48,446 nucleotides of DNA from an uncultured Erysipelotrichaceae bacterium (lineage in GTDB: Bacteria > Bacillota_I > Bacilli_A > Erysipelotrichales > Erysipelotrichaceae), in the NCBI GenBank assembly GCA_964592705.1, contig CAZQFM010000001.1:1-48446 (forward strand), given 5' to 3'. This document shows positions 317 through 47,775 of this stretch, piece after piece; the first letter of the stretch is position 1, and every line of letters begins with the position of its first letter. The notes beneath the pieces are model-generated. The model was not told the origin of the DNA. It saw nothing but the letters and a program-made list of their open reading frames with translations, and did no database searches. The position numbers and the translations under genes are program-made.

Positions 317-1669
317 TTACTTTTTTAGTTTAATAGGTGAACCAAATAAAATCTTTTTACATTCTTTATAAGAGAATGGGATTAAAGGATATAAATATGG
401 GAACTTGATTGTTTTAATACTTAATAAAACGACAACATGAAGCAAAACACCCATACAAAAACCGGTCAACCCAAATAACAAGGATAAAAAACCAATGATG
501 ATACGAAACCCCTTATTAGCAAGAGATAATTCATAACTAGGTGTTAATAAATTCCCAATATTAGAAAGTGCAATCATGACAAGGATTTCGTTTGTATAAG
601 CTCCTAAATCAACGGCCATGTCTCCAAGTACAAATACAGCAATAAATCCCATAATACTTGATAAAACAGTAGGCGTATGAATGAGAGATTGACGTATCCA
701 TTCTACTACAATATCCGCAAAAATAATTTGAAATCCAAATTCAACAACCCGTAAATTTTCCATCAGAGGCAAGTTTAACATCGTTGGATTTTTTTCAATC
801 ATTAGCACAATCCATAGTGGTAACAAATACAAAGAAAATACTATACCGATAAGACGAATAACTCGTGTGAAAGTCGCAATAAGTGTTGTCTGTGTATATT
901 CTTCTATTTGTTTGGTTTGTTCAAAAAAGGTTGTAGGAATAATCATTGCTGTAGGTGTATTATCTACAAGTACAACAAGATATCCTTGTAATAAGTGAAT
1001 AGCACAAATATCAGGACGTTCTGTATAGCGTACATGAGGATATGGATTTAGTGTTTTTCCATATAACTCTTCACATAGATTTTGATCACTTAAAATTTCT
1101 GTTTCATCAAGCATAGTGAGACGATGTTCAAAATCTTGTAAAATATCTGGATCAACTAAATGTTCAATATACATATATGCTATATCTGTTCTTGTTTTAG
1201 CACCTTCTTTATTAATACAAACACGTAATTTTGGATCACGTATACGCCTTCTCACAAGACCAACATTTAAAATAATATTCTCTACAAAGCCATCATGTGC
1301 TCCACGTATACTCTTTTCAACACTAGGTTCAGCAGTACTACGTGATGGATAGTTTCTTGTTTCTAAACAATAGAAAACATCACTTCCCTCTACAATAGCG
1401 ATACTTTGTCCACTCAACATATTCGTAATAGCTTTATGTAAATCATTTTCTTTCTCTACAGATCCAGGATAAAACGTAAGCATAAGCTCATTTCCTGCTG
1501 TAATGACAATACTTTCAATAACATCTGCGATTATCGAACTATCCGATAGTGAGGATAAGAAAATAAGACATACTCTTTGTTCTTTGATAGTTACATTTCG
1601 ATATACGATATCAAAAGAAGGAGATACAACATCCTTAATACTTTGGATTTTTTCTTCAAAAGATAACAT
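317..1669 (-). CDS. spoVAF: Stage V sporulation protein AF (GerA-family spore germination protein)
   Basis: 450 aa. Soluble N-terminal GerA-type domain followed by several C-terminal TM segments. Last gene of a spoVAC-AD-AE cluster. Its start overlaps the spoVAE stop (TAATG). Confidence 0.8.
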   Translation of the reverse strand: MLSFEEKIQSIKDVVSPSFDIVYRNVTIKEQRVCLIFLSSLSDSSIIADVIESIVITAGNELMLTFYPGSVEKENDLHKAITNMLSGQSIAIVEGSDVFYCLETRNYPSRSTAEPSVEKSIRGAHDGFVENIILNVGLVRRRIRDPKLRVCINKEGAKTRTDIAYMYIEHLVDPDILQDFEHRLTMLDETEILSDQNLCEELYGKTLNPYPHVRYTERPDICAIHLLQGYLVVLVDNTPTAMIIPTTFFEQTKQIEEYTQTTLIATFTRVIRLIGIVFSLYLLPLWIVLMIEKNPTMLNLPLMENLRVVEFGFQIIFADIVVEWIRQSLIHTPTVLSSIMGFIAVFVLGDMAVDLGAYTNEILVMIALSNIGNLLTPSYELSLANKGFRIIIGFLSLLFGLTGFCMGVLLHVVVLLSIKTIKFPYLYPLIPFSYKECKKILFGSPIKLKK

Positions 1670-2022
1670 TACGATTTAGGTTTACATACAACGGCTACAA
1701 GAAAAGCAAATAAAATAGCACTTGTTATTCCACTTGTTGTTAAATCAAACATACCAGATAAAATACCAAGTAATCCATTTTTTTCTGCTGCCTCTAATGC
1801 ACCATGTATGAGCGAATGTCCAAAACTGGTAATTGGTAAAGAAGCACCCGCTCCAGCAAATTCTATTAATTGATCATATAATCCAAAAGTATCTAATGCT
1901 GCTCCTATTACAACAAATAAACTTGTAATATGACCTGCAGTTAATTTCGTATTATCATAAATGATTTGTCCAATAGCACAAATCAATCCACAAACAATAA
2001 AAGCATTTACATACATCATCAT
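1669..2022 (-). CDS. spoVAE: Stage V sporulation protein AE (SpoVAEb-type membrane protein)
   Basis: Small polytopic membrane protein with the SpoVAC/AE signature ...AGAGASLPITSFGHSLIHGA.... I place the start at ATG 2022, which is preceded by AAAGGAGTG. The ORF-track start at 2052 would overlap spoVAD. Confidence 0.85.
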   Translation of the reverse strand: MMMYVNAFIVCGLICAIGQIIYDNTKLTAGHITSLFVVIGAALDTFGLYDQLIEFAGAGASLPITSFGHSLIHGALEAAEKNGLLGILSGMFDLTTSGITSAILFAFLVAVVCKPKS

Positions 2023-2023
2023 A

Positions 2024-3016
2024 TTACGCACTCCTTTCGTATACAATTGCATGTGCTATACAAGGTATACTTTCTTTTTGTTGGATTGCTACAGGAGATA
2101 ATAAAGCTCCTGTTGCGATAATCATAATTCTTTTATATGTCCCATCTTCAATACCTTCTAATAGTTTTGCTAAGGAGACACACATACTACATGCACATCC
2201 ACTTCCTCCACAAAAAGCATCTTGCTTTGAAAAGTCATAAATCATTAATCCACAATCATGAAGTCGATTATCAATATCATAACCATCTTGTACACACAAA
2301 TCCATTAAGAAAGAATATCCTAATTTTGATAAATCTCCTGTTGCGATTAAATCATAATCTTTAAACGTAGTATTGGTTTGTTGGAAATGTGTTTTTAATG
2401 TATCGTAAGCAGCTGGAGCCATCGCTAATCCCATATCATTAGCATCTTTATGATCCCAATCTACAATTTTTCCAGGTGTAAATGCTGTAACTTTGATTTT
2501 GGTTTTCTTTCTACCTAAAATCAAAGCACCACTACCTGTAACGGTAAGTGTCGTTGTTGGTTTTTTCTGAATTCCATATTCATTAGGATAACGAAATTGA
2601 CGCTCTGCTGTCGCTACATGAGAACTCGTAAAGGCAAGTGCATGATCTGCCATATTATGTTCTACTAACATAGCTGCCTGCCCAATAACTAAAGAACTAG
2701 TAGCACATGCTGCATACATTCCTATAAAAGGAATATTCATATCACGTGCAAAGTAATGGGAGCTTGTTAATTGATTGATTAAATCTCCCCCTACAATAAC
2801 ATCTAAATCACTTACTTTCATATTCAACTTTCGAATAGCATGATCACATGCTTGATAAATAAGTGCTCTTTCAGCCTTTTCAAATGTCTTCTCATGACAA
2901 TAATTATCATCAAAGGTCTTATCAAATAATGACCCAAGGGGTCCTTCTTTCTCCATTTTCCCTACTGCTGTTGCTCTTGATTGTACATAAACATTTTGAA
3001 ATTTTATCGTTTTCAT
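2024..3016 (-). CDS. spoVAD: Stage V sporulation protein AD (thiolase-fold, dipicolinate-binding SpoVAD)
   Basis: 330 aa, recognisably similar to SpoVAD over its whole length (N-terminus MKTIKFQNVYVQSRATAVGKMEKEGPLG...). Sits between spoVAC and spoVAE. Confidence 0.9.
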   Translation of the reverse strand: MKTIKFQNVYVQSRATAVGKMEKEGPLGSLFDKTFDDNYCHEKTFEKAERALIYQACDHAIRKLNMKVSDLDVIVGGDLINQLTSSHYFARDMNIPFIGMYAACATSSLVIGQAAMLVEHNMADHALAFTSSHVATAERQFRYPNEYGIQKKPTTTLTVTGSGALILGRKKTKIKVTAFTPGKIVDWDHKDANDMGLAMAPAAYDTLKTHFQQTNTTFKDYDLIATGDLSKLGYSFLMDLCVQDGYDIDNRLHDCGLMIYDFSKQDAFCGGSGCACSMCVSLAKLLEGIEDGTYKRIMIIATGALLSPVAIQQKESIPCIAHAIVYERSA

Positions 3017-3018
3017 TG

Positions 3019-3465
3019 CTATGCACCAAATAATAGAAAGCGTATCGCTCCAAATACAAAGGCTGATACGATACCATAAGTAATAACAGATCCTGCCAAT
3101 TTAAACATATTTGATCCTATTCCATAAATAGGTCCTTCACTACGACACTCAAGAGCACTTGACGTTAATGAATTGGCAAATCCTGAAATCGGGATAAACA
3201 TACCTGCACCAAAAAATTGCGCAAACTTATCATAAATACCCAATCCCGTACATACCGAAGTAACAAAAATAAAGGTTACAATCATCAAAGATAATGCTTC
3301 CTTTTCATCCATGCTTAACATATTCATATAAACATGTAATAAAGCTTGTCCAATAATTGCGAATACACCACCACATAAAAAAGCTACGATTACATTTCGT
3401 AATTTATTATGCTTGGGGGTATGTTTTTTCGCTGTATCTTTTATTTGCTTTTGATCCATATACAT
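3019..3465 (-). CDS. spoVAC: Stage V sporulation protein AC
   Basis: 148-aa four-TM protein with the motif ...FGAGMFIPISGFANSL.... First gene of the cluster, with a GGAGGA RBS. Confidence 0.9.
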   Translation of the reverse strand: MYMDQKQIKDTAKKHTPKHNKLRNVIVAFLCGGVFAIIGQALLHVYMNMLSMDEKEALSLMIVTFIFVTSVCTGLGIYDKFAQFFGAGMFIPISGFANSLTSSALECRSEGPIYGIGSNMFKLAGSVITYGIVSAFVFGAIRFLLFGA

Positions 3466-5497: not shown

Positions 5498-6640
5498 TCA
5501 TAAGGTTAATGTAACATCTAGCCTCTCTGTGCCATTCTTGGAAGTTCCACAATCATATGTATATTTAATAGTACTTCCATTTACATATCCACTGACAATA
5601 CCCTTTTCTTTATCTAGAGTAGCACCATTTATACTCGTGATTCTACTAGGGTCAATACCAGGAAATACTTCTCCTATATTAAATGTTTTTCCAATACTTC
5701 CTAAATCAATAGTACTTTCACTTTTTTCTATAGATAAATTAAGGTTATCACCTATATGTAACCATGTTAAATTAGTACTTAAAACTTGCAAATGTTCCAA
5801 TTTTGTATTCATACTTACATTTAAGCCCGTAATTTTTGACCATCCACATTCCAAATTCTTCAATAATAAATTCTGGCTTACATCTAATTCTGTTATTCCT
5901 GTACCAGAACAATCTAGTACTTCTAATTTATTATTCTGACTTATATCTAATTCCTCTATACCTGTACAAGAACAACCCAGATATTCCAATTTTTTATTAT
6001 TGCTAATATCAAGCTCCGTTATTTCTGTTTTATAGCAGCTCAGCTTATCTAATTCTATATTCTGACTTACATCTAAACTTGTAATTCCTGTGCTATCCAA
6101 CCACAACTCTGTCAATGCTGTATTCTTAGTTACATCTAATTCTGTGATTCCTGTACTCCAACAACTCAAAGATGTCAATGCTGTATTCTTACTTACATCT
6201 AATTCTGTAATTCCTGTGTTACTACAATTTAACTCTGTTAATTCAGGATTGTTACTTACATCTAATTCTGTGATTCCTGCTCCATAACACAACAACTCTG
6301 TCAATGCTGTATTCTTAGTTATATCTAATTCTGTGATTCCTGTCTGAAAATAAGTTAAAGACATAAGATTAGGAAAATGTTCAATTCCTTGTAAACTTGT
6401 TATATTTTGGTTACAAACTACCAATATATTTGTTATATTATTAATCTCATCACTAGATAATATACCATCTCTATCTTTATCAAAATTCTCTTTTATATAC
6501 TTCCTAAAATATCTATCAGGAAAATTTGCTTTCTTAATTTTTATATATCCTGTTTGTCCAACACATTGAATTCTTTTTATACTTCCTAAGAACCTATTTA
6601 CAAAAATATTTAGCCCTTTTTCCTTATGCGTTCTTTTCAT
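5498..6640 (-). CDS. Leucine-rich-repeat protein with about 10-11 units of 21 aa, an N-terminal cap containing a DxDxDG-like loop, and a C-terminal beta-rich domain
   Basis: Repeats of the type GITELDVSKNTALTELxCxxT. The N-terminal FPDRYFRKYIKENFDKDRDGILSSDEINNIT cap is typical of clostridial/Listeria-type LRR proteins. No hydrophobic signal peptide is visible. Confidence 0.85.
   Translation of the reverse strand: MKRTHKEKGLNIFVNRFLGSIKRIQCVGQTGYIKIKKANFPDRYFRKYIKENFDKDRDGILSSDEINNITNILVVCNQNITSLQGIEHFPNLMSLTYFQTGITELDITKNTALTELLCYGAGITELDVSNNPELTELNCSNTGITELDVSKNTALTSLSCWSTGITELDVTKNTALTELWLDSTGITSLDVSQNIELDKLSCYKTEITELDISNNKKLEYLGCSCTGIEELDISQNNKLEVLDCSGTGITELDVSQNLLLKNLECGWSKITGLNVSMNTKLEHLQVLSTNLTWLHIGDNLNLSIEKSESTIDLGSIGKTFNIGEVFPGIDPSRITSINGATLDKEKGIVSGYVNGSTIKYTYDCGTSKNGTERLDVTLTL
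5740..6435 (-). repeat. Tandem 63-bp coding repeats (LRR units), some copies nearly identical
   Basis: 6104..6154 and 6293..6343 match at 50 of 51 positions and lie exactly three units (189 bp) apart. The core acatctaattctgt(g/a)attcctg recurs with a 63-bp period. Confidence 0.85.
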
Positions 6641-20459: not shown

Positions 20460-21167
20460 TTATTTATCCTTTCTGACCTTTAATTCCTCAATTTCTTGTT
20501 GCGTTAAATAACGATATTCACCTTTAGCCAAAGTTTCATCTAAGGTAAGTGGCCCCATGCGAACTCGTTTTAAATATAGAACCTCATTCCCTAAACATTT
20601 CATCATTCGCTTAATCTGATGATACTTTCCTTCACAAATCGTTAAATAGATTTTCGTATGATGAATTACCTCTACTCTAGCAGGCAAACATTGTTCATGA
20701 TTCCCTATATACATTCCACTCTCAAGAGTACGAATATCACTTTCTTGCAATGCCTGTTTCAAATGGACAAGATATGTTTTTTCAACATGTTTTTTAGGAG
20801 CTAGTAAATCATGTGCCAATGCACCATCATTTGTTATAAGAACAAGCCCTTCTGTATCAATATCTAAGCGACCTACTGGAAAACACCCTTTTGGTAAAGT
20901 ATCTTTTATCAAATCTAAAACAGTCAATCGTTCTCTATCTTTAGTTGCGGAAAGAACACCAGATGGTTTATGAAGCATGATATATACATTACTATCGAAT
21001 GATATGAGCTTATCATCTACATGAAGAATATCTTCTTGTAAATGAATCTTACGATCCATTTGTGTACAAACTTCAGCATTTACTTTCACTCGTTTCTTTC
21101 GTATAATCTCTTTTACCTCTTTTCTCGTGCCTAATCCTGCATGAGCTAATACCTTATCTAGTCTCAC
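20460..21167 (-). CDS. RsuA/RluB-family pseudouridine synthase with an N-terminal S4 domain
   Basis: [17 protein letters not shown] (S4 domain) and the catalytic ...[17 protein letters not shown]... motif. Confidence 0.85.
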
Positions 21168-22798
21168 TTTGCTTTTCTCAACTTTCCTAGGATTTGGGAT
21201 GCATCCATATGAAATATAGTTTGAGGTAACTGAAAGAAATAAGTAATTCCTATATAAGTAGCGATTGCTAAAATACCACCAATAGCTAATTCTACCATAG
21301 CTTGTATTCTTCCAACATCATATCCTTTCCATCCAATAACTTGCATTATCCAAGCAACAACAGCTATACCTAAAGTTCCTATTAACATAAACACTACTTT
21401 TCGTAATGTATATCCCCATTCTATATCATGGTGCTTCCAAATAATATAAGCATCTAAAACAACAAACATTCCCATTGATATAAAACTGGATATAACAGCA
21501 CCTGGATATCCAAACCATGCAATCATAGGATATGTTAACATAACTTTAATCGCAACACTGATCACTTGGTTTTGAATATTCTCCTTCCGTAATCCTGCAG
21601 CCATCATAAGAGCTGTAAAAATAGGCGCAATCGTACCGATAAAAGCTTCTATCGAGTACCAAGATAAAATTTCTGAACATAATTGTAAATTCTCTTTAGG
21701 ATTATACAATACATAGTAAATCGGTTTTGCAAAAGCAAATAAACAAAAAGAAATAGGGATTCCAATATACAAAACAGAATCTACACAATCTCGCATATTC
21801 TTTTGAATCAATTTCCGATTTTTTTGGGCAATTGCTGTTGTAATATAAGGGATAATAGCTGCCGAAAAACCTGGTGCTAAAATCATCGGTATCGACATCA
21901 GTTTATTGACTCCTAACGTAATAGCACCTACAATCGCATCGGATTGTAACACATCTCCATGTGCTGCTAACCCCTTTGGTAAAAACATAAGATTAATCAT
22001 ACTATCACTATATCCTAAAATAGCAACAAGTAAATATGGAAAAGCAATCAATACTAATTCTTGTAAAATGACTTTTACATTATTGTTATGAGCAATCTCT
22101 TGTTTTTTCGCAAGTCTATGTAGATCTTTCATCTTTTTTCGATCATATAACTTAATATGTATAATAGCCAAAATAGCAGAAATACTAGTAGATAACACAC
22201 CGAAATAAACAGCCCATATACGTTGTTGACCAAATACATATATCGCTAAAGCACTTGCACCTAGTAAAAAGATAACACGTGAAATTTGTTCAAGAACTTG
22301 TGATAAAGCATATACTTCCATTTCTTTTAATCCTTGATAAAATCCCCTTATACCACTTAATATAGGCACAAAAAATAAGGCAAACGAAATAATAATTAAT
22401 ACATTTCGCATAATCATAATTTCACTTTCACTAGCATTTTGTGCAATCATCAACGACGCTAATGGTTTAGCAAATAGTATAAGAAACAACATACTGACAA
22501 ACCCTAAGACAACCATAACAGCCGTAGATAATTTTTTTACTAATAAGGATGTTTTATAATCATCACGAGAAGAATATTTCGCAATTAATGTAGCTATCGC
22601 AAAAGGAAAACCTGCAATAGATACATTTAATATATAAGAATAAATTTGATAAGCTACACCATAGTAGGTCTGGTTAGCTGCTGTTTCTAAAATCGCATTA
22701 AAAGGAATCACATAGATAATTCCAATTAATTTAGAAACAAAGATACCGGCAGAACTGATAAGTCCTCCTGTAATAATGGATTGTTTTTTTATTGACAT
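21164..22798 (-). CDS. MOP-superfamily flippase (YtgP/SpoVB/MurJ-like polysaccharide or lipid II flippase)
   Basis: 544-aa protein with about 14 TM segments. Adjacent to the pseudouridine synthase, as ytgP is adjacent to ytzG in B. subtilis. Confidence 0.7.
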   Translation of the reverse strand: MSIKKQSIITGGLISSAGIFVSKLIGIIYVIPFNAILETAANQTYYGVAYQIYSYILNVSIAGFPFAIATLIAKYSSRDDYKTSLLVKKLSTAVMVVLGFVSMLFLILFAKPLASLMIAQNASESEIMIMRNVLIIISFALFFVPILSGIRGFYQGLKEMEVYALSQVLEQISRVIFLLGASALAIYVFGQQRIWAVYFGVLSTSISAILAIIHIKLYDRKKMKDLHRLAKKQEIAHNNNVKVILQELVLIAFPYLLVAILGYSDSMINLMFLPKGLAAHGDVLQSDAIVGAITLGVNKLMSIPMILAPGFSAAIIPYITTAIAQKNRKLIQKNMRDCVDSVLYIGIPISFCLFAFAKPIYYVLYNPKENLQLCSEILSWYSIEAFIGTIAPIFTALMMAAGLRKENIQNQVISVAIKVMLTYPMIAWFGYPGAVISSFISMGMFVVLDAYIIWKHHDIEWGYTLRKVVFMLIGTLGIAVVAWIMQVIGWKGYDVGRIQAMVELAIGGILAIATYIGITYFFQLPQTIFHMDASQILGKLRKAK

Positions 22799-23868: not shown

Positions 23869-24732
23869 TTATGATAAAAGATTTTCGAATACTGTCGAAT
23901 CCATATATTCATCTACAATACTTTGTAAATCTTGTGTTAAGGGAACTAATGGTAATCGAACAATATTTTTACATCGATTCAATTTCATTAGGATATATTT
24001 TAAAGTAACAGGTGATCCTCCCATGAATACATAAGCTGCACTACATACAAGTTTTTCCACGAGTTCTTGATTTTCTTCCTCGATACATTCACGCATCTTT
24101 CTTAAATAAATATGAGACATAACAGAAATGATACCACACATTCCTGCTGCCTTCCCTTCCATAAAATAATTATCTTCTCCACTATATATTTGAAAATGAG
24201 GATATTTTTGATGAAGCTTTTGAATACCAGATAAATCATGAGATGCATGTTTTAGTGCAACTATATTGGAACATTCTTGTAAGAGGCGATCAGTTGTACT
24301 CCATTCTAAAGAAACTCCTGTTCTAGATGGTACATCGTACAACATAATCTTTGTTTGTATTTGATTAGCAATTGTTTTGTAATGTGCATACAATCCTTCT
24401 TGGGAAGGCTTATTATAATATGGAGTAACAAGTAATACACCATCAATATCATATCCTTGCGCTTTTTTACAAAGGGATATCGTTGCTTGTGTATCATTAC
24501 ACCCACATCCAAACCATATCTCAACCTGATGCTTTGTTTCCTCTAAAACAAATGCTAATATAGAAAACTTTTCTTCTTCACTTAATGTTGGTGCTTCAGC
24601 TGTTGTCCCACATACAATAAAACCATCCACACCATTTTGTAATTGTTCCTGGATAATACCTTTTAATGCTATAAAGTCGATACTACCATCTTCTTGAAAG
24701 GGTGTGATTAATGCTGTCATAATATTAAACAT
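23869..24732 (-). CDS. dapA: 4-hydroxy-tetrahydrodipicolinate synthase
   Basis: 287-aa DapA/NAL-family TIM barrel (...TALITPF...GTTAE...). Located immediately after dpaAB. Confidence 0.85.
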   Translation of the reverse strand: MFNIMTALITPFQEDGSIDFIALKGIIQEQLQNGVDGFIVCGTTAEAPTLSEEEKFSILAFVLEETKHQVEIWFGCGCNDTQATISLCKKAQGYDIDGVLLVTPYYNKPSQEGLYAHYKTIANQIQTKIMLYDVPSRTGVSLEWSTTDRLLQECSNIVALKHASHDLSGIQKLHQKYPHFQIYSGEDNYFMEGKAAGMCGIISVMSHIYLRKMRECIEEENQELVEKLVCSAAYVFMGGSPVTLKYILMKLNRCKNIVRLPLVPLTQDLQSIVDEYMDSTVFENLLS

Positions 24733-25309
24733 GTAGAGCTCCTAATAATATAGGTTGTATCTGTTTATTTTTTAAAGCTAAATCACATGTTTTTTCAAGA
24801 AGATCCCAATCAGCAACGACACTATATGCTTTACTATGAGGAGCATCCTGGCGAAAAGGAATTACATAGATATATTTTCGATCAATTAAGGAAAAGAAAT
24901 TAGCTGCCGATGCCCCCAATACATCGTTACTCGCAATACCTACAACAACATTTTTCTGATTACGAATCATCGCTTTAGCAGCTAAAGCAACTGGATGATC
25001 ATAAATACCATGACGGATTCTTGCACATACCGTTGCTGTCATAGGCGCAATAATCATCAAATCATAGATATTATCAGGACCAACTGTTTCTGCTTGTACA
25101 ATCGTATGCATGACACTTTGCTTCGTAATATCTTCTAATTGCTTTAAGAAATCTTCACGATTAAAAAAACGTGTAGAATCACGATACACATGATCACTAA
25201 CAACAACTTTTACTTCGTTATGTTCACATAACTTTTGTAATTGTTTCAAAATATGGTGATGATTGCAAAAGGAACCACTAATCCCAAATAATATTTTTTT
25301 ATTCTTCAT
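24725..25309 (-). CDS. dpaB: Dipicolinate synthase subunit B (flavoprotein family)
   Basis: 194 aa with an N-terminal ...ILFGISGSFC... flavoprotein motif. Overlaps both dpaA and dapA. Confidence 0.85.
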   Translation of the reverse strand: MKNKKILFGISGSFCNHHHILKQLQKLCEHNEVKVVVSDHVYRDSTRFFNREDFLKQLEDITKQSVMHTIVQAETVGPDNIYDLMIIAPMTATVCARIRHGIYDHPVALAAKAMIRNQKNVVVGIASNDVLGASAANFFSLIDRKYIYVIPFRQDAPHSKAYSVVADWDLLEKTCDLALKNKQIQPILLGALHV

Positions 25310-26075
25310 GTATATTATCCCTCACAAACTTCGCAATCAAACGACCTGCACTTTTATAAGCGATCATACTAGGTAAATTACCTGCTTTTATAACACGTAT
25401 TCCTAATACTTGTGCTGTATCCATATCAATAACATCTGGAGTTGCTATATCTATAATTAATGGCTTTGATTCCCATGATCCAAGCACTTCTTTCTTTAGT
25501 ATTTTCTGGATGCTCGTATTAATAATCACCGAAGATGGTTCTTCGTGTATCCATGTATCAACACTCATAAACTCTTTTGTTTCTTCTACTTCTCTTCGTA
25601 TCACTCTCACATCAATGCCTAAACCCGTTAACCAATCAACAATAGCTTTCCCACATCTTCCATAACCGATAACATCTACTTGTAACTCTTTAATAGAAGT
25701 AGGAGTATTATCAATTAATAAGAATAAAATGCCTTCTGCTGTCAATTGTGCATTTTCAAGTAATAACTCCTCATCTTGCATATAATACATTACCTTACAT
25801 GGTAAAGCATCAAGAAAAGGATGAGCAAGACCAGCAAACACTATACAGGATGGAGATAAATTCTCCCAAAAAGAAGATGGAATATGAAGTTTTTTACCAT
25901 TTGCTGTAATATTCCCTTCTTCATCAATACCTTTAACTGGTAAAACCAATACATCAATATTTGATACATCATCAAAATTAGTAAATTCATGAATAGCAGT
26001 AACAGCATACTTATGTGATAAAGCAAAGTATACCTCTTGCATTCTTTGATCATTGTTCACAACAGCTATATTCAT
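25299..26075 (-). CDS. dpaA: Dipicolinate synthase subunit A
   Basis: 258 aa. The N-terminus aligns with SpoVFA (NIAVVNNDQRMQEV vs KIAVIGGDARQLEI). Rossmann motif VIGYGRCGKA. Confidence 0.8.
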   Translation of the reverse strand: MNIAVVNNDQRMQEVYFALSHKYAVTAIHEFTNFDDVSNIDVLVLPVKGIDEEGNITANGKKLHIPSSFWENLSPSCIVFAGLAHPFLDALPCKVMYYMQDEELLLENAQLTAEGILFLLIDNTPTSIKELQVDVIGYGRCGKAIVDWLTGLGIDVRVIRREVEETKEFMSVDTWIHEEPSSVIINTSIQKILKKEVLGSWESKPLIIDIATPDVIDMDTAQVLGIRVIKAGNLPSMIAYKSAGRLIAKFVRDNIHEE

Positions 26076-38955: not shown

Positions 38956-39627
38956 TTAAGCTTCATTGAAAGTGAATTTAATTGTAATTACTTTCTTTTT
39001 ATGATATGTTTCAATATTTATATTTCCTATTTCACTAAGTTTATCTACATGGACTCCACCACATGGGACTTTATAATTCATACATTCCCACCATCTATAA
39101 TGCTCCTTTTCTAAATCTGGATATGTTTTTACTTGATTATCTGTTTTTATTAAATCATAAAACATTTCATTAACTTTATCCAAAATAGACATATCAAAAC
39201 TATTTTCATCATATTTGTTATAGGCAAAGCCATCTTCAATATTTGATGCTAATGGATAATCTACTGCACTACCTTTAATACTTTCAATAGTATAATGATA
39301 TAAATGTAAAGCCGTGTGTAATCTCATTTGTCTATATCTAAAATTCCAGTCTAAGAAACATGTAACTGCTTGTCCAATATACTTAATATCAATTAATCTA
39401 TCAACAATTAGAATGCTAGTATAATTTTCATCTTTAATTGTATTTATAATATTATATTTTTCATCACCTATTATCAAATATCCTCTATCACCTTTTTGGC
39501 CACCACCTTGAGGATAAAAAATGCTATCTTCAAGTCTTGCAAAGTATTTACCATTTTCTTCAAAAGATTCTAACAATTTTGTTGTTAATTCCTTTTTAGT
39601 TTTATCTTCATAATAATACTTTATCAT
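38956..39627 (-). CDS. AlaX-type alanyl-tRNA editing protein (Thr/Ala-tRNA synthetase second additional domain)
   Basis: FYPQGGGQKGDRG N-terminal barrel motif, the HTALHLYH (HxxxH) motif and the CGGVH zinc motif. Confidence 0.8.
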   Translation of the reverse strand: MIKYYYEDKTKKELTTKLLESFEENGKYFARLEDSIFYPQGGGQKGDRGYLIIGDEKYNIINTIKDENYTSILIVDRLIDIKYIGQAVTCFLDWNFRYRQMRLHTALHLYHYTIESIKGSAVDYPLASNIEDGFAYNKYDENSFDMSILDKVNEMFYDLIKTDNQVKTYPDLEKEHYRWWECMNYKVPCGGVHVDKLSEIGNINIETYHKKKVITIKFTFNEA

Positions 39628-39768: not shown

Positions 39769-40854
39769 TTATAAAAACACTTCTAATACATCATGAAGAA
39801 AGAACATCCCCTTTTTCGTCGTTTTTACATATCCTTCTTCCATGACTAAATACTCTTTCTCTAACATATCCTGTAACGGTTGTTTATAAACTTGATTAAA
39901 GGACTCATGAAACCTATTGTGAAATGACTCTAAACATAATCCCTTTTTCATACGTAAAGACATCATCACCATTTCAAACATTTCATCTCTTTTTGTCAAA
40001 GGAATGAGTTCTGGAGATGGTCCTTCACTTATATAAGTTTGAATATTATTCGTATTATTATATCGTAATTGTAATCGTTTTCCACAAGCTCCACATCCAA
40101 TACCTTCAAAGTCTTCATATTTCCAATACATTTGATTGTGTAAACATTCATAGCCTGGTTTAGCAAAGCTACTAATTTCATATTGAAAGAAACCAGCTTT
40201 TTCTAATGTAGCAATTGCTATATCATACATTTCTCCTTCTAAAGTAGGATCCATAGGCTCAATATTTTCTCTACCAAATGTAGAATTTTTTTCTATGGTA
40301 AGAGCATATAACGAAATATGTTGGATAGGTAATTGAATAGCAACAGAAAGATCATATTCCCATTGTTTCATCGTTTGTCCAGGTAATCCATACATAAAAT
40401 CAAGTGAAATATTATGAATACCTGCGTTATGTAAAGCATCAATTCTATCTTTCACTTCCTCTATTGTATGAAAACGAGCGATTTTATTTAGTAAGTTTTT
40501 ATCAAATGTTTGTACTCCTATAGAAATACGATTTACCCCCATATTTTTCATATCTTGTATTTTTTCATTGCTTAAAGAATCTACATTTGCTTCCACACTA
40601 AATTCTTTTATATTTTTTCGTAAAGGTTGAAGCATATGTAAAACTTTATGAAATTGTGAATCTGATAACGCTGTTGGAGTCCCTCCTCCTATAAATATCG
40701 TCTCTATACTATCTGCTAAATTCTTTTGTTGTAATTCTTTTTGTAATGCAACCAACCATTTATCAGCTACTTCATGATGATAGCGACTTCTTGTAAAATC
40801 ACAATAAGCACAAATATCTTTACAAAAAGGAATATGAACATATAACGCTTTCAT
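39769..40854 (-). CDS. hemW: Radical SAM heme chaperone HemW (HemN-like)
   Basis: ALYVHIPFCKDICAYCDF (CxxxCxxC). 361 aa. Found in the lepA neighbourhood, as in Bacillus. Confidence 0.85.
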   Translation of the reverse strand: MKALYVHIPFCKDICAYCDFTRSRYHHEVADKWLVALQKELQQKNLADSIETIFIGGGTPTALSDSQFHKVLHMLQPLRKNIKEFSVEANVDSLSNEKIQDMKNMGVNRISIGVQTFDKNLLNKIARFHTIEEVKDRIDALHNAGIHNISLDFMYGLPGQTMKQWEYDLSVAIQLPIQHISLYALTIEKNSTFGRENIEPMDPTLEGEMYDIAIATLEKAGFFQYEISSFAKPGYECLHNQMYWKYEDFEGIGCGACGKRLQLRYNNTNNIQTYISEGPSPELIPLTKRDEMFEMVMMSLRMKKGLCLESFHNRFHESFNQVYKQPLQDMLEKEYLVMEEGYVKTTKKGMFFLHDVLEVFL

Positions 40855-40868
40855 CCTATCCTCCTCAT

Positions 40869-41585
40869 TTATGAAAAATTACTAAGTTTTAACCTTTCAC
40901 TAATAATCCTAACAAGTTGTGAATTTGTCGGTTTCATATTATGTATACTTATTTTATCAGGATCTATTCGATAAGCATAGCTAATAGCATTCCGTATAGC
41001 TTTTTCAACACGGGATGCTGTTGTAAAATGTTGTTTTGCTGTTTGGACATAGATACTTTTCATGGATCTGCTACTACCAACAAAGCTTTCTTGAAGCAGA
41101 ATAGCTGCTGTTTTAATATAATGAAAACCACTAAGATGTACTGGTACCCCCATATTAACAAGAATATGAGATACAAAAGATTCCAAATTTTCATATGCAG
41201 AATCTTCAACCTCATTCACTTCTACTTCAACATTAATTGCATGCATAAGCTCTTCCACTGTATAAGGTTCAATAAGATATGTTTGTATATCAAATTTTAA
41301 TAAAGTATGTACACTATCTACATCTAAATCTTTGAAAACATTCAAAACCTTAATATCTTTTAGATTCCTATCTTCTTGTATCATTTCAAGCAGTTGAGTT
41401 GATTTTTCATAGTTAATGGAGTTTTGTAAGACTAAGACTTCTGTTTGAAGTGCTTTTAATTCTTTAATTGTATCTGGTACTGACGTTGCAATTCCTACTA
41501 ATTCAATTGCACTTTTACTAGCTGAATGCTCAATAATTTCATGAATCATTGAGTAATCATTCATACATAAGAAAATTTTAGCCAT
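40869..41585 (-). CDS. Spo0A-like transcription factor with a degenerate (pseudo-)receiver domain
   Basis: The C-terminal domain matches the Spo0A effector domain (HFTTASRVEKAIRNAI..., KPTNSQLVRIISERLKL). The receiver-like N-terminal half has VLVLQ at the acceptor-Asp site and LIEPY at the conserved-Lys site. Confidence 0.75.
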   Translation of the reverse strand: MAKIFLCMNDYSMIHEIIEHSASKSAIELVGIATSVPDTIKELKALQTEVLVLQNSINYEKSTQLLEMIQEDRNLKDIKVLNVFKDLDVDSVHTLLKFDIQTYLIEPYTVEELMHAINVEVEVNEVEDSAYENLESFVSHILVNMGVPVHLSGFHYIKTAAILLQESFVGSSRSMKSIYVQTAKQHFTTASRVEKAIRNAISYAYRIDPDKISIHNMKPTNSQLVRIISERLKLSNFS

Positions 41586-41631: not shown

Positions 41632-42552
41632 TTAGATTACATAATAAACGAATTTCTTCCCCACTTTCTGCTTTTTATACCATTTTTCTTGAACAAGATG
41701 CTCTAAAGAATATCGTGCTGTCTCATAACAAACACCACAAAAATTCATATAATTTTGAATAGTATAATAATGATTACATTCTCTATGTGCAACATAAAAT
41801 TCTATTTGCTCTTTACGTAACATGGGAAAGCGCTCGATAAGGTCTTTCGCATGCATTGTTGTAAGAGATTCCTGATTACCACTTTTTAATAATACCATTA
41901 TATGAAATAATTTCAACTGGATTGTTTCAAGAAAACAAAGAAATCGATACGTTAAATCGTGGTCCTCTTCAATCATAGCCATTTTATGAATACATTCATC
42001 TAGGGGTAGAATATTTGCACAAGGCAAACAACCATTTTTCATGAGTAATGGAAATTGTAAAATATAAGATACTTTAGGAGGTGTAGAAGATACAAGTAAA
42101 AATAATTTTATTAAAAAAGGAAGTTGATGATCCGATAAAATAGATATAATATCGAATGTACAATCTGACTGAAGTCGAAATAATTCAATACATCGAGAAT
42201 ACGTTTCTTTTTCTGGCATCATCGTATTGATTTTCGTTTGTAAAAGGTAAGCTTGTAAAGCTATTTTTTCTTCTTCATCTAAAAGCTCGTCCTGAATATT
42301 GATATTATCATCATGATGATGTATAGCATATTGATAGAGTAGTTCCTGTACTTGTAATATGGTATTAATCACAAGAGGATTCCTTGTTAAATATTCTGTT
42401 TTTTCATGAAAGGTAAACTCATATCGAAAGAAAGAACGATATGTCTCTATTTCTCTCCAAACAGGTTCTAATACATAATAGTCCATTAATTCAGATAATT
42501 CTTTCTTGCTATAGTATTTTAATTCACTATATTTACGCGCTGTTTCATACAT
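41632..42552 (-). CDS. Hypothetical 306-aa protein with a C-terminal winged-helix domain; possibly a Fic-fold protein lacking the catalytic motif
   Basis: The C-terminus YTIQNYMNFCGVCYETARYSLEHLVQEKWYKKQKVGKKFVYYV resembles the wHTH tail of Fic-family proteins. No HxFx(D/E)GNGRxxR motif is present. RBS is GAGGTGA. Confidence 0.4.
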   Translation of the reverse strand: MYETARKYSELKYYSKKELSELMDYYVLEPVWREIETYRSFFRYEFTFHEKTEYLTRNPLVINTILQVQELLYQYAIHHHDDNINIQDELLDEEEKIALQAYLLQTKINTMMPEKETYSRCIELFRLQSDCTFDIISILSDHQLPFLIKLFLLVSSTPPKVSYILQFPLLMKNGCLPCANILPLDECIHKMAMIEEDHDLTYRFLCFLETIQLKLFHIMVLLKSGNQESLTTMHAKDLIERFPMLRKEQIEFYVAHRECNHYYTIQNYMNFCGVCYETARYSLEHLVQEKWYKKQKVGKKFVYYVI

Positions 42553-42616
42553 GATATCACCTCTTCTCCCATTTTAGCATGTATTTGGGAGTTAGCGTTT
42601 CTATTCGCCAAAAATA

Positions 42617-42641
42617 GAAAAAAATAGACATTTCTGCCTAT
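42617..42641 (-). terminator. Intrinsic terminator after lepA
   Basis: Minus-strand ATAGGCA-GAAA-TGTCTAT followed by TTTTTTT, starting 2 nt after the stop codon. Confidence 0.8.
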
Positions 42642-42642
42642 T

Positions 42643-44445
42643 TTAATCTTCATCCATTGATAGTACAGCCATAAATGCTTCTTGTGGTACTTCTACTGAT
42701 CCAACAGATTTCATCCGTTTTTTACCTTCTTTTTGTTTCTCTAATAATTTCTTTTTACGAGAAATATCTCCACCATAACATTTCGCTAATACATTTTTAC
42801 GAAGTGATTTAATATCGGTACGTGCAACTACTTTACCTGATATTGCAGCTTGAATAGGTATTTCAAATTGCTGTCTTGGAATTAATGTTTTCAATTTTTC
42901 ACAAATAGCTTTTCCTCTTGGATATGCAAACTCTTTATGAACAATAGTAGATAAAGCATCTACTACTTCCCCATTTAATAAAATATCCATTTTAGCTAAT
43001 TTATTTACTTGATATCCGATAAGCTCATAATCAAAGGACGCATACCCTTTACTACATGATTTTAAACGATCAAAGAAATCATATACAATTTCCCCTAATG
43101 GAAGTTCGTATATAATGTTCATTCTAGTATCATCAATATAGCGCATATCTTTATATATACCACGTTTCTTTTGACATAACTCCATAATAGGTCCTATATA
43201 CTCAGAAGGTGTCATAATGGTTGCCTTTACAAAAGGCTCTTCTATTCGATCAATTTTTTGTACATCTGGTAACATACTTGGATTGTCAATCTTAAGCATT
43301 TCACCATTTGTCAAATATGCGTGATAAACAACAGAAGGTGCTGTCGCAATTAAATCAATATGATATTCACGCTCAATACGCTCTTGTACAACATCCATAT
43401 GTAATAAACCTAAGAAACCACATCGAAATCCAAACCCTAAGGCTTGCGATGTTTCCGCTTCATAATTCAAGGATGAGTCATTTAATTGAAGCTTATCTAG
43501 TGCATCACGTAAATCATTATACTTACTAGAATCAATTGGATATAAACCACAATACACCATAGGATTTAATACACGATATCCTTCTAGTGGCTCACTTGCT
43601 GCATGATCAACACATGTAATTGTATCCCCAACATGCACATCTGCAATCGATTTAATACTAGCACTTAGCCATCCAACTTCACCACAGCTTAATTTTTGAG
43701 TACGAACTTCTTTAGGTGTTCTTACTCCAAGTTCTAATACTTCATATTCTGCACCAGTTGCCATGAAACGTATCTTATCACCTACTCGTACTTCCCCTTC
43801 TTTTACTCTAATAAAAGCTATTACCCCACGATAAGCATCATAAACAGAATCAAAGACAAGTGCTTGTAGCGGTGCTGTCGCATCCCCTTTTGGTGCAGGT
43901 ACATATTTAACTACCGCTTCTAGAACATCACGAATATTCAATCCATTTTTCGCTGATATTAAAGGAGCTTCATCAGCTGGTAATCCAATAACATCCTCAA
44001 TTTCTTTTTTCACAACATCTGGTTGTGCACTAGGTAAATCAATTTTATTAATAACAGGGATAATCTCCAAATTATTATCTAAAGCTAGATAGACATTCGC
44101 AAGTGTTTGCGCCTCAATCCCTTGTGCAGCATCCACAACTAATACAGCTCCTTCACATGCAGCTAATGATCGAGATACTTCATATGTAAAATCGACATGT
44201 CCTGGAGTATCTATTAAGTGAAAGATATATTCTTGTCCATCGAGTGCAGTATATTTTAATTGCACAGCATTTAATTTAATCGTAATCCCACGTTCTCTTT
44301 CAAGATCCATAGAATCTAATAACTGATCTTTCATTTCTCTATGTTGTACCGTTTCTGTAATCTCAAGAATTCGATCAGCCAATGTAGACTTTCCATGATC
44401 AATATGGGCAATAATCGAAAAGTTTCTAATAAATTTTTGTTCCAT
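42643..44445 (-). CDS. lepA: Translation elongation factor 4 (LepA)
   Basis: 600 aa with [28 protein letters not shown] and NKIDL GTPase motifs, plus the LepA C-terminal domain. Confidence 0.95.
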
Positions 44446-44609
44446 AATAAACTCCTTCCGATATGGCAGAAATATTATATCAAAAAGTATTTCATAAAGA
44501 AAGAAAAAAGGCAGTAATCATTCAGATACTCCCTTTAAAGTATATATTTTTTCAATTAGTAATCATGAAGATCCTACTTAAAAGTATAACATTATAAGTA
44601 AATCTTTCT

Positions 44610-45939: not shown

Positions 45940-46803
45940 TCACCTCAAATAGTCTGTAATTCCTTGTGCTAATACAGGCAATGAATTTTTCACTTCTTCA
46001 AAACTATTTACATCTCCTCCTAACTCTATTAATACCATATTAGGACTCATCTGTTGATTATAGTACGCTTCACGAACCATCATCGATCGCATAATACCAT
46101 AAACCTGATTGTTAATCATGTCATTTAACGTCGAACTATTTTTGGTTATAGTATCTGCATTAGAGGATAACCCTCCTACTACCATCATCATCTTAGCATA
46201 TCGTTTTCCATTCACATCAATATAGCTGGCTTCCTTTGGTATGGCATCTCTATGTAAGTCAATAACCAAATCAAAGCCACCATAATTAACAAAAGCTTCA
46301 TTTAAGAAGTTATAAGAAATTCTATAACTCTGATTATAATCCATATTGTGTGCTTTTCCATAAGCCACAAAATCATTTGTTTCTAGTACAACTGTATGGC
46401 CTTGTTCTTGTAATAAATTAGCTAAAATAGCTGCTGCATCTACTACTGTTTCTCCACCTTCATATGCCTCGCTTTGATGCGTATTATAAATATAAATACG
46501 CTTTCCTGTTTGTTGCGGTGTTATGGGTTCTTGTGGGATTTCTGGCACAGGCTTAGGATTTTCTTCTGTAGTCTCAAACTGAAAGTCTTCTTTTTTTAAT
46601 GTGAAGTTTGAATTATACGATAGAACATTAAGCTGTTCTTTAATAGAAATCGTTTCATCAATAGAATGTCGTTTATATACTAATGAGTTTAAGAGTTTCT
46701 CTTCATTTCCAATAGCATCCTTTAACTCATCTATAAACGGTGTCATATATAAAAATAAAAATAGAATACAAACTTTACAAATAATTTGAAGTGTAGATTT
46801 CAT
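45940..46803 (-). CDS. spoIIP: Stage II sporulation protein P (engulfment amidase)
   Basis: 287 aa with an N-terminal TM helix. The C-terminal domain contains ...IYIYNTHQSEAY... and ...DLHRD.... Confidence 0.85.
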   Translation of the reverse strand: MKSTLQIICKVCILFLFLYMTPFIDELKDAIGNEEKLLNSLVYKRHSIDETISIKEQLNVLSYNSNFTLKKEDFQFETTEENPKPVPEIPQEPITPQQTGKRIYIYNTHQSEAYEGGETVVDAAAILANLLQEQGHTVVLETNDFVAYGKAHNMDYNQSYRISYNFLNEAFVNYGGFDLVIDLHRDAIPKEASYIDVNGKRYAKMMMVVGGLSSNADTITKNSSTLNDMINNQVYGIMRSMMVREAYYNQQMSPNMVLIELGGDVNSFEEVKNSLPVLAQGITDYLR

Positions 46804-46852
46804 AAAAAAACACCACCTTGCTACATCTTATGTAGTTAGATGGTGAATCATT

Positions 46853-47731
46853 CTATAGTCGATCATAATCGGGATGAAGTACTTTATTTAGACTTTCTGC
46901 GACAATATAAGTCAAATGCTTAAGTTCATCATCCATTGATTTAGGTGTGACAACTAAATCCAAATTACTATCATCATATATTTTCTGTAAAATTTCTTCT
47001 TTTTCAATTTCTACTTTATCTAAACTTTCCTTTAAGATGGCACCAATACTTGTAACGGTAGCTACTCCTATCGCAAGAACAGGAATCCCTAGTGACTCTT
47101 CATTCAAAGCCATACGATGATTCCCAACACCACTACCTGGTTGAATTCCTGTATTATTAATTTGTACAACACGATTAATACGTGATGTATTACGAGTTGC
47201 TAAAGCATCGACAGCTATAATTAAATCTGGTTGATACGATTGGGCAACACTCTTCACTATATGAAAACTTTCAAGTCCTGTTTGCCCCATAACACCTGGC
47301 TGTATGACAGCTACATTACGTGTACCTTCTAATAGCTCTTTCTCTTCATTCTCATATAAATGTGCTGTTACCATAATTTCATCTGCTACACCTGGTCCTA
47401 AGGCATCAGAAGTTATAAAACGATTTCCTAATCCAACAACTAGTATTTTAGATAATGATAGTTCCATCTTATCAATAATAGTTTGTAAACTTTCGTAAAT
47501 AGCTTCAATAATTTGTTCTCGATCATCATGATCAAATAAATTCTTAAACTCTATGGATACATATTCACCTTTCTCTTTGCCTAATTCATTTTCATCGGTA
47601 AGTATACTTATAGCATTACATTTAAGAAAATCATTCTTTTTTTCAATATGATGATACGTCTTTGACTGAATGTTTTGCGTAATTAATTCATCTGCAAAAT
47701 CGGTACGTATCTGAAATATTTTATTTCCCAT
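46853..47731 (-). CDS. gpr: Germination protease GPR
   Basis: ...IRTDFADE... N-terminus and ...VVGLGN...T.DALGP... motif. I place the start at ATG 47731, preceded by GAGGTGA. The track start at 47767 lacks an RBS. Confidence 0.9.
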   Translation of the reverse strand: MGNKIFQIRTDFADELITQNIQSKTYHHIEKKNDFLKCNAISILTDENELGKEKGEYVSIEFKNLFDHDDREQIIEAIYESLQTIIDKMELSLSKILVVGLGNRFITSDALGPGVADEIMVTAHLYENEEKELLEGTRNVAVIQPGVMGQTGLESFHIVKSVAQSYQPDLIIAVDALATRNTSRINRVVQINNTGIQPGSGVGNHRMALNEESLGIPVLAIGVATVTSIGAILKESLDKVEIEKEEILQKIYDDSNLDLVVTPKSMDDELKHLTYIVAESLNKVLHPDYDRL

Positions 47732-47775
47732 GATATCACCTCTCATGAATAGTATGGTTTTTTTCACGGTTATTA

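Follow-up and report, generated by a model that had tools for sequence, protein, structure and literature searches.

Phosphorylated Spo0A is regarded as the universal switch into endospore formation, and the presence of spo0A alone is used in genomic surveys to predict sporulation in gut bacteria. In the canonical protein, typified by Spo0A of B. subtilis and C. difficile, a phosphorylatable receiver is joined by a long flexible linker to a Spo0A_C effector domain, and its gene follows spoIVB. Receivers without a phosphorylatable aspartate are also described, such as ChxR, HP1043 and AmiR, the last controlled by AmiC (PMC4395418), and such proteins must owe their activity to a partner protein, a bound ligand or constitutive dimerisation. 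Spo0A_C domains occur outside the canonical gene in Clostridia, where two spo0A copies are reported in 10 Clostridiales genomes and three in Anaerostipes hadrus (Galperin et al., 10.1101/2022.02.25.481979). Here we analyse a Spo0A-like gene in a 48,446-nt stretch of DNA from an uncultured Erysipelotrichaceae bacterium (positions 1 to 48,446; hereafter the window). The gene combines a Spo0A effector domain with a receiver-like domain whose phosphorylation site is missing. On balance we favour the reading that the Erysipelotrichaceae have their own form of Spo0A, represented by this gene, which is most likely the orthologue of the master regulator in this lineage, controlled without phosphorylation. 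The gene and its two domains are as follows.

40869..41585, minus strand: Spo0A-like gene with ATG start, 238 amino acids (aa), predicted pseudo-receiver plus Spo0A_C effector domain (open reading frame (ORF) call; Spo0A_C 63 bits, Response_reg 20 bits, TIGR02875 78 bits; AlphaFold2 predicted local distance difference test (pLDDT) 87).
41220..41585, minus strand: N-terminal predicted pseudo-receiver, residues 1-122 (CheY alignment, family tally, predicted fold, Foldseek match to 1qmp with template modelling (TM) score 0.79, ratio of non-synonymous to synonymous substitution rates (dN/dS) 0.07-0.28).
40869..41192, minus strand: Spo0A_C DNA-binding domain, residues 132-238 plus stop (1fc3/1lq1 alignments, Foldseek TM ~0.8, family alignment, dN/dS 0.03-0.10).

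The C-terminal ~100 residues, which an earlier note on this DNA had likened to the Spo0A effector domain, are confirmed as a genuine domain of the Spo0A type. Pfam Spo0A_C (PF08769) matches residues 138-232 at 63.2 bits (E 2.5e-17; cut-off 25 bits) with all 104 profile positions covered, and the same profile matches 23/23 of the family members tested. In a phmmer search of the PDB, residues 132-235 align to the Spo0A C-domains 1fc3 (E 6e-13) and 1lq1 (E 2e-12). The corresponding part of an AlphaFold2 model, built with 23 family sequences as input and a mean pLDDT of 87.3, is matched to both by Foldseek at TM 0.79-0.83 and a root-mean-square deviation (rmsd) of ~2.5 Å. The recognition helix TTASRVEKAIR is retained, with R replaced by K where ‘ERAIR’ aligns, and the motif TTxSRVEKAIR is almost invariant across the family. 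Against the full-length Spo0A equivalog model TIGR02875 the protein scores 78.2 bits (E 6e-22), the highest among the 23 members and below the equivalog cut-off of 200 bits. In the same searches, four proteins of 394-454 aa (P0015, P0024, P0026 and P0029) have no receiver and consist of Spo0A_C domains in tandem, three or four per protein (Pfam 311-399 bits over 3-4 stretches), an arrangement unfamiliar to us.

The N-terminal domain is predicted to be an aspartate-less pseudo-receiver that keeps the receiver fold with a residue other than Asp at the acceptor position. Pfam Response_reg (PF00072) reaches 20.3 bits, below its gathering threshold of 30.2 bits, but the match spans the whole profile, with residues 6-118 on positions 2-111. 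Across the 23 members the profile gives E < 0.01 in 6/23 and reaches the threshold in 0/23. The model places strands at residues 2-7, 27-33, 50-54, 79-84 and 102-105, alternating with helices at 11-23, 41-45, 59-71, 89-97 and from 110 onwards, which is the five-strand beta-alpha receiver fold, with pLDDT ~82-95 over residues 1-120 and a helical domain following. Foldseek matches this domain to the Spo0A receivers 1qmp (TM 0.79, rmsd 2.4 Å) and 5wq0 (TM 0.78) and to DesR (TM 0.72), and AmiR (1qo0) is also among the matches of the model. When aligned to CheY (3h1g) by HMMER, the protein has Q54 in place of the acceptor Asp, F84 in place of the conserved Thr and E106 where CheY has the conserved Lys; N9-D10 falls on the DD pair, of which D10 is the sole acidic residue remaining. 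The codons read from the sequence agree: Q54 is CAA on the gene strand (41424-41426; plus strand ttg), and the others lie at 41268-41270 (E106), 41334-41336 (F84) and 41556-41558 (D10). The description of this domain in the earlier note, with receiver spacing kept, acceptor Asp, Thr and Lys replaced and one acidic residue left of the pair, is thus right in every particular. Its further claim, that the protein is beyond the control of phosphorelays and kinases, holds for classical phosphotransfer to the canonical site, which on this alignment is excluded for the window protein, given that acceptor Asp, Thr, Lys and one acidic residue are gone.

These features extend to a protein family. An exhaustive profile search returned 21 representative clusters at E < 1e-30, all of 230-250 aa and aligned over their full length, and a word-indexed search added further members to give a total of at least 38 sequence clusters. 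All organism-named members belong to the Erysipelotrichaceae except the unclassified ‘bacterium c-19’ and ‘Clostridiaceae bacterium DONG20-135’. We take the latter to be Copranaerobaculum intestinale, an Erysipelotrichaceae species; the name could not be mapped in the taxonomy. NCBI product names are ‘Spo0A C-terminal domain-containing protein’ or ‘hypothetical protein’. One called member, the 267-aa ORF of locus L017, seems to begin ~30 codons too early.

We scored the receiver signature in 38 family members and in 17 canonical-type Spo0A comparators from the same search. The acceptor position of the family is held by D in 19 members, by Q in 10 and by E in 5, and the other four have N, R, H or T, one of each. 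Lys is present at its position in three members, none of which has the acceptor Asp, and is otherwise replaced by Ala, Glu, Gln, Gly or His; the Thr/Ser position holds Thr in none and Ser in four. The acidic residue at the end of beta-1 (D10 in the window) is conserved in most members. Among the comparators, Lys and Ser/Thr are present in 17/17 and the acceptor Asp in 14/17. Because a full phosphorylation site is found in 0/38 members and the Response_reg threshold is never reached, loss of the phosphorylation machinery is old and family-wide. An acceptor position that is free to vary fits a site that has dropped out of use and out of selection. Acceptor loss alone also appears outside this family, in three otherwise canonical-looking Spo0A homologues that keep Lys and Ser and have Glu, Ser or Asn in place of the acceptor Asp (P0046, P0058 and P0064).

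Against two relatives, 91% and 76% identical, the window gives dN/dS of 0.07-0.28 in the pseudo-receiver and of 0.03-0.10 in the DNA-binding domain. Both domains are under purifying selection and the gene is not decaying; the neighbouring hemW (0.06-0.14) and the gene for a 306-aa protein just upstream (0.12-0.15) show comparable ratios. Over longer range, where LepA is 77-84% identical, identity falls to 46-51% for HemW, 34-42% for the 306-aa protein and 28-33% for the Spo0A-like protein.

The genes that flank the Spo0A-like gene lie where the earlier note had placed them.

41632..42552, minus strand: upstream gene, 306 aa, putative Fic-like helical core without Fic motif plus C-terminal winged helix-turn-helix (AlphaFold2, Foldseek, hhalign, synteny).
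39769..40854, minus strand: hemW, 14 nt downstream of the Spo0A-like gene (TIGR00539 308 bits).
42643..44445, minus strand: lepA, the usual upstream neighbour (ORF list, relatives' loci).

A survey of relatives, which the note had proposed, found the order ~306-aa gene, Spo0A-like gene, hemW in 10/10 lineages with fetched DNA: the window type (also L010 and L019), L021, L022, L012, L013, L015, L017, L024, L025 and L026. The upstream gene encodes ~280-315 aa, and the order is kept even at 25-33% identity of the Spo0A-like protein. Most lineages share the longer arrangement gpr-spoIIP-x-(fmt)-lepA-[~306 aa]-[Spo0A-like]-hemW-rpsO-pnp, with a gpr/spoIIP block as in the window in L013, L017, L019 and L026. 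Since L021 and L024 have another gene in place of lepA and still keep the pair and hemW together, the tight unit is the two-gene pair plus hemW. The Spo0A-like gene and hemW overlap by 4 nt in L015 and L025, a generic terminator scan found no terminator on the minus strand between the two genes, and hemW is probably co-transcribed with the Spo0A-like gene.

A conserved promoter region lies between lepA and the 306-aa gene. Its elements in the window are listed here.

42604..42610, minus strand: 0A box TGGCGAA (fits TGNCGAA), 58 nt upstream of the 306-aa gene ATG, kept in related loci.
42624..42630, minus strand: degenerate 0A-like half-site TGTCTAT, 20 nt upstream of the main box, start to start.
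42571..42579, minus strand: extended -10 TGCTAAAAT, 24 nt downstream of the 0A box; no good -35.
42621..42644, minus strand: hairpin followed by a T-run just past the lepA stop, probably the lepA terminator (RNA fold -12.1 kcal/mol, z = -4.25).

The sequence TGNCGAA is the classical form of the 0A box. In the window, L021, L022, L013, L015, L017, L025 and L026 it precedes TGNTAAAAT by 24 nt, or by 23 nt in one locus, and the variants TGTCGAG and TGTCGCC are found in L024 and L012, respectively. Positions G2, C4 and G5 are invariant in 10/10 lineages, position 3 varies, and four lineages have the perfect TGTCGAA. [quoted passage not shown] Counted from the first gene's start codon, the boxes scored here fall between -57 and -75. 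All loci share the arrangement TTCTATyTTTG-N-CGAA, 24 nt, TGnTAAAAT, ~20 nt, then a ribosome-binding site and ATG, and six aligned loci have no indel between box and -10. The TGTC core of the half-site is kept in most relatives examined, and L026 has a perfect TGTCGAA further upstream.

One copy of the composite TGNCGAA-N24-TGNTAWWHT is present in the 48-kb window, where 0.03 are expected, and across ~300 kb of fetched loci the only others are those at the homologous sites and one elsewhere. The bare TGTCGAA is not enriched in the window (5 found against 4.3 expected), so only the position-conserved composite is informative. Neither the extended -10 nor the weak lepA terminator was picked up by a generic promoter and terminator scan, whose output did not exceed chance. 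A sigma-H-type promoter picked out by eye in the intergenic region was dropped, as its -10-like GAAT is not conserved among loci. Given the lepA terminator hairpin, and the persistence of the promoter in L021 and L024 where lepA is not upstream, the pair is likely to form its own transcription unit with its own conserved promoter. The 0A box at this place suggests an autoregulated operon, with a probably activator-dependent promoter of poor -35 and extended -10.

The 306-aa gene is found directly upstream of the Spo0A-like gene in every lineage examined, and both organism-named proteins among its 36 homologues are from Erysipelotrichaceae. Pfam and NCBIfam scans gave no match, Fic (PF02661) included. 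The best PDB matches of its AlphaFold2 model (pLDDT 87.9) in Foldseek are to Shewanella SoFic (3zec/3eqx; E 4e-4, probability 1.0, TM 0.25), with C. burnetii Fic2 at TM 0.33; the overall range of 0.25-0.34 is low, as expected for superpositions of multi-domain proteins. The last 74 residues form a winged helix-turn-helix that hhalign matches with 99.2% probability to the C-terminus of P0290, a 478-aa protein with a Pfam Fic domain. This profile comparison with a Fic-annotated relative supports the C-terminal winged helix-turn-helix only. The Fic-like core is a fold-level suggestion, moderately supported by Foldseek and by weak collinear BLAST segments. AMPylation chemistry is not expected of the protein because the catalytic motif HxFx(D/E)GNGRxxR is found in 0/33 family members. 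In L022 (199-1146) the called start of the 315-aa homologue falls inside the conserved -10 element (the ATG of ‘CATGCTAAAAT’), and the real start is probably the downstream ATG, giving ~306 aa. Strict co-occurrence and similar evolutionary rates make the 306-aa protein the leading candidate for a docking partner or co-regulator of the Spo0A-like protein. Among the modes of control raised in the earlier note, that by a partner protein gains support from this co-conservation.

Together these elements suggest how such a Spo0A might work. The C-terminal domain would still bind 0A-box DNA through its conserved recognition helix and so regulate its own production. The promoter, whose conservation is observed and whose function is proposed, would serve the pair and probably hemW. 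The pseudo-receiver, being unable to take a phosphoryl group at the canonical site, may serve as a dimerisation or docking module. Activity would then be set without a phosphorelay by the amount of protein made from the autoregulated promoter, with its 0A box just upstream of the -35 position and its extended -10. Alternatively, it may be set by protein-protein contacts of the pseudo-receiver, with the 306-aa protein as candidate partner. As the same version of Spo0A is found across the Erysipelotrichaceae, beside this partner gene and behind a Spo0A-type site, the lineage probably starts sporulation without the classical phosphate signal. A more specific proposal we advance tentatively and regard as rather doubtful in its entirety: that sporulation across the gut spore-formers of the Erysipelotrichaceae is started by a Spo0A that lost phosphorylation long ago, and that the decision falls to a two-gene module in which an autoregulated pseudo-receiver Spo0A is joined by a Fic-like winged-helix protein, devoid of catalysis, as its binding partner or as the sensor of the signal. 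Such a module would bring a new input logic to the developmental switch best studied in bacteria.

The window also carries genuine sporulation genes.

45940..47767, minus strand: spoIIP and gpr (TIGR02867 124.7 bits, TIGR01441 272.5 bits).
317-3465: spoVAC, spoVAD, spoVAE and a GerA-type gene (NCBIfam scan).
21164-22798: SpoVB/MurJ-like gene (NCBIfam scan).
24725-26075: dpaA and dpaB (NCBIfam scan).

SpoVAD, SpoVAE, DpaB, SpoIIP and GPR pass their NCBIfam cut-offs, and DpaA (118/320 bits), the SpoVB-like protein (107/372) and GerXA (160/850) fall far under their equivalog cut-offs. The low TIGR02875 score of the Spo0A-like protein (78/200) fits such lineage-wide divergence of sporulation proteins, so weak equivalog scores are better read as a trait of the lineage than as a sign of paralogy.

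The earlier note had taken the position between lepA and hemW as an argument for a paralogue as opposed to the master regulator itself. In that event a canonical, phosphorylatable Spo0A would be encoded elsewhere, and the protein described here would modulate the 0A regulon by competition, by heterodimers or as a phosphorylation-independent back-up. Several observations lean that way or weigh against the orthologue. The usual spoIVB-spo0A context is absent, the gene lying between the Fic-like gene and hemW, downstream of lepA; the protein diverges much faster than canonical Spo0A; and TIGR02875 gives just 78 bits against 200. The conserved box, as a putative target, could be read by another Spo0A and equally fits control by a separate canonical one. 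Spo0A paralogues, Spo0A_C-only and multi-Spo0A_C proteins exist in other Firmicutes. The helix alpha-E, between the recognition helix and the KPTNS motif, is the sigma-A activating or contact region in B. subtilis Spo0A. At this helix 8-9 residues are missing relative to 1fc3 and 1lq1, a deletion common to the family, and interaction with or activation of RNA polymerase may differ accordingly. A scan of a genome collection with family peptide patterns returned only Oscillospiraceae and Ruminococcus Spo0A loci and did not reach the source genome, and the nearest canonical-type match, P0031, lies on a 1.4-kb contig with uninformative gene context. Set against these points, a single spo0A is reported in each of C. 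innocuum, E. ramosum and A. intestinale, and spo0A paralogues only in Clostridiales (Galperin et al., 10.1101/2022.02.25.481979). At E 6e-22 to TIGR02875, the present gene would have been counted in that survey as a second copy, which would argue for a single-copy orthologue if the one spo0A counted in C. innocuum and E. ramosum belongs to this family. The location itself, on which alone the paralogue conclusion rested, turns out to be a conserved home, kept throughout a family so deep that the Spo0A-like protein is only 28-33% identical where LepA is 77-84% identical, and this weakens the conclusion. It is opposed too by the equal divergence of other sporulation proteins in the window and by a conserved 0A box placed as at canonical spo0A (PMC3485338). 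We therefore consider an auxiliary paralogue unlikely. The gene is probably the only Spo0A of its genome, and the outcome that the note had named as its alternative, an atypical master regulator that is the sole spo0A-like gene of a sporulating genome, is the more likely one.

Two further explanations were weighed. Phosphorylation might occur at a non-canonical site (D10, another Asp, or a Ser, Thr, His or Cys), or members that keep the Asp might still be phosphorylated, with only some clades, that of the window among them, having lost it. The acceptor Asp in 19/38 members and the conserved acidic residue at the end of beta-1 are compatible with this. Of the 19 members with Asp, however, none retains the Lys or the Thr, and hardly any keeps the two acidic metal ligands together. 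Residues at the acceptor position range freely over D, Q, E, N, H, R and T, and the window protein has Gln there, so we regard continued phosphorylation as distinctly improbable. That the gene is a decaying, functionless remnant in a lineage losing sporulation is suggested by the loss of many sporulation genes in the Erysipelotrichaceae and by the fast evolution of the protein. It is largely refuted by ORFs intact in all lineages and dN/dS of 0.03-0.28 in both domains. The almost invariant recognition helix, the conserved promoter and partner gene, and the intact spoVA, dpaAB, spoIIP and gpr genes in the window also speak against it, and it is scarcely credible. An Erysipelotrichaceae master regulator working without phosphorylation accordingly remains the reading we prefer.

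The wider neighbourhood shows local variation of its own. In a strain whose Spo0A-like protein is 99% identical (L010/L011, 2014-6948, equivalent to window 44446-44609), ~5.5 kb of extra genes lie between fmt and lepA. They encode a DUF4176 protein, several small ~100-aa proteins and proteins of 380, 229 and 233 aa, and the window has only a 164-bp gap at this site, which marks a strain-variable island. The slot between hemW and rpsO holds a 223-aa AlaX-like alanyl-tRNA editing protein in the window (38956-39627, minus strand; NF040865, 95 bits against a cut-off of 300). It is empty in L013, L015, L017 and L025 and holds an opposite-strand NAD-binding dehydrogenase in L012, L021, L024 and L026. 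Between rpsO and pnp lies a lone 83-aa ORF with a FakA-like middle domain (PF21645; 37863-38114, plus strand), and similar 71-83-aa ORFs occupy this slot in distant relatives (L015 8329-8544, L010 13494-13745). Elsewhere in the window, 5498-6640 (minus strand) encodes a 380-aa protein made mostly of ~22-residue repeats, ‘TGITELDVSxNxxLxxLxC’, which looks like a leucine-rich-repeat surface protein.

If the preferred reading is true, entry into sporulation is wired differently in common human and animal gut commensals, including organisms like C. innocuum and T. ramosa, and hunts for sporulation kinases, phosphatases and phosphorelays in the Erysipelotrichaceae are misdirected. It would provide a natural, evolutionarily stable case of a master response regulator rewired to phosphorylation-independent control. 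The Fic-like partner without a Fic motif and the defined promoter element are concrete candidates for direct testing. A literature search found no described pseudo-receiver or aspartate-less Spo0A and no comment on the receivers of Erysipelotrichaceae Spo0A, and Spo0A-type outputs are absent from the review of aspartate-less receivers. As far as we have found, no description exists of a Spo0A that lacks the acceptor aspartate and whose partner gene and putatively autoregulatory promoter stay fixed throughout a bacterial family.

Among known systems, canonical Spo0A (1qmp, 1fc3, 1lq1; TIGR02875) shares with the Spo0A-like protein the layout of receiver fold and Spo0A_C domain, the recognition helix, a 0A box (putative in the Spo0A-like gene) in its own promoter and a genome with sporulation genes. 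The Spo0A-like protein differs by lacking the acceptor Asp, the Thr, the Lys and one of the two acidic ligands, by its lower equivalog score and its deletion, by its faster evolution and its place beside hemW instead of spoIVB, and by a predicted helical connector in place of the flexible linker. With the aspartate-less receivers it shares a receiver fold without a phosphorylatable Asp, and Gln and Glu are acceptor substitutions typical of such receivers. It departs from them in its Spo0A_C output and in a degeneration so strong that the Pfam Response_reg threshold is missed. SoFic-type Fic proteins (3eqx, 3zec; PF02661, PF21248) resemble the 306-aa protein in overall architecture, which in the latter is a putative helical Fic-like core followed by a winged helix-turn-helix, and its C-terminus is clearly homologous to that of Fic-annotated proteins, whereas it has no HxFx(D/E)GNGRxxR motif and is ~60-170 residues shorter. 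The Clostridia Spo0A paralogues and Spo0A_C-only proteins, both short and tandem, likewise carry a Spo0A_C domain outside the canonical gene. Those paralogues coexist with a canonical spo0A, whereas the family described here has a fixed locus, partner gene and promoter across a bacterial family and is probably single-copy.

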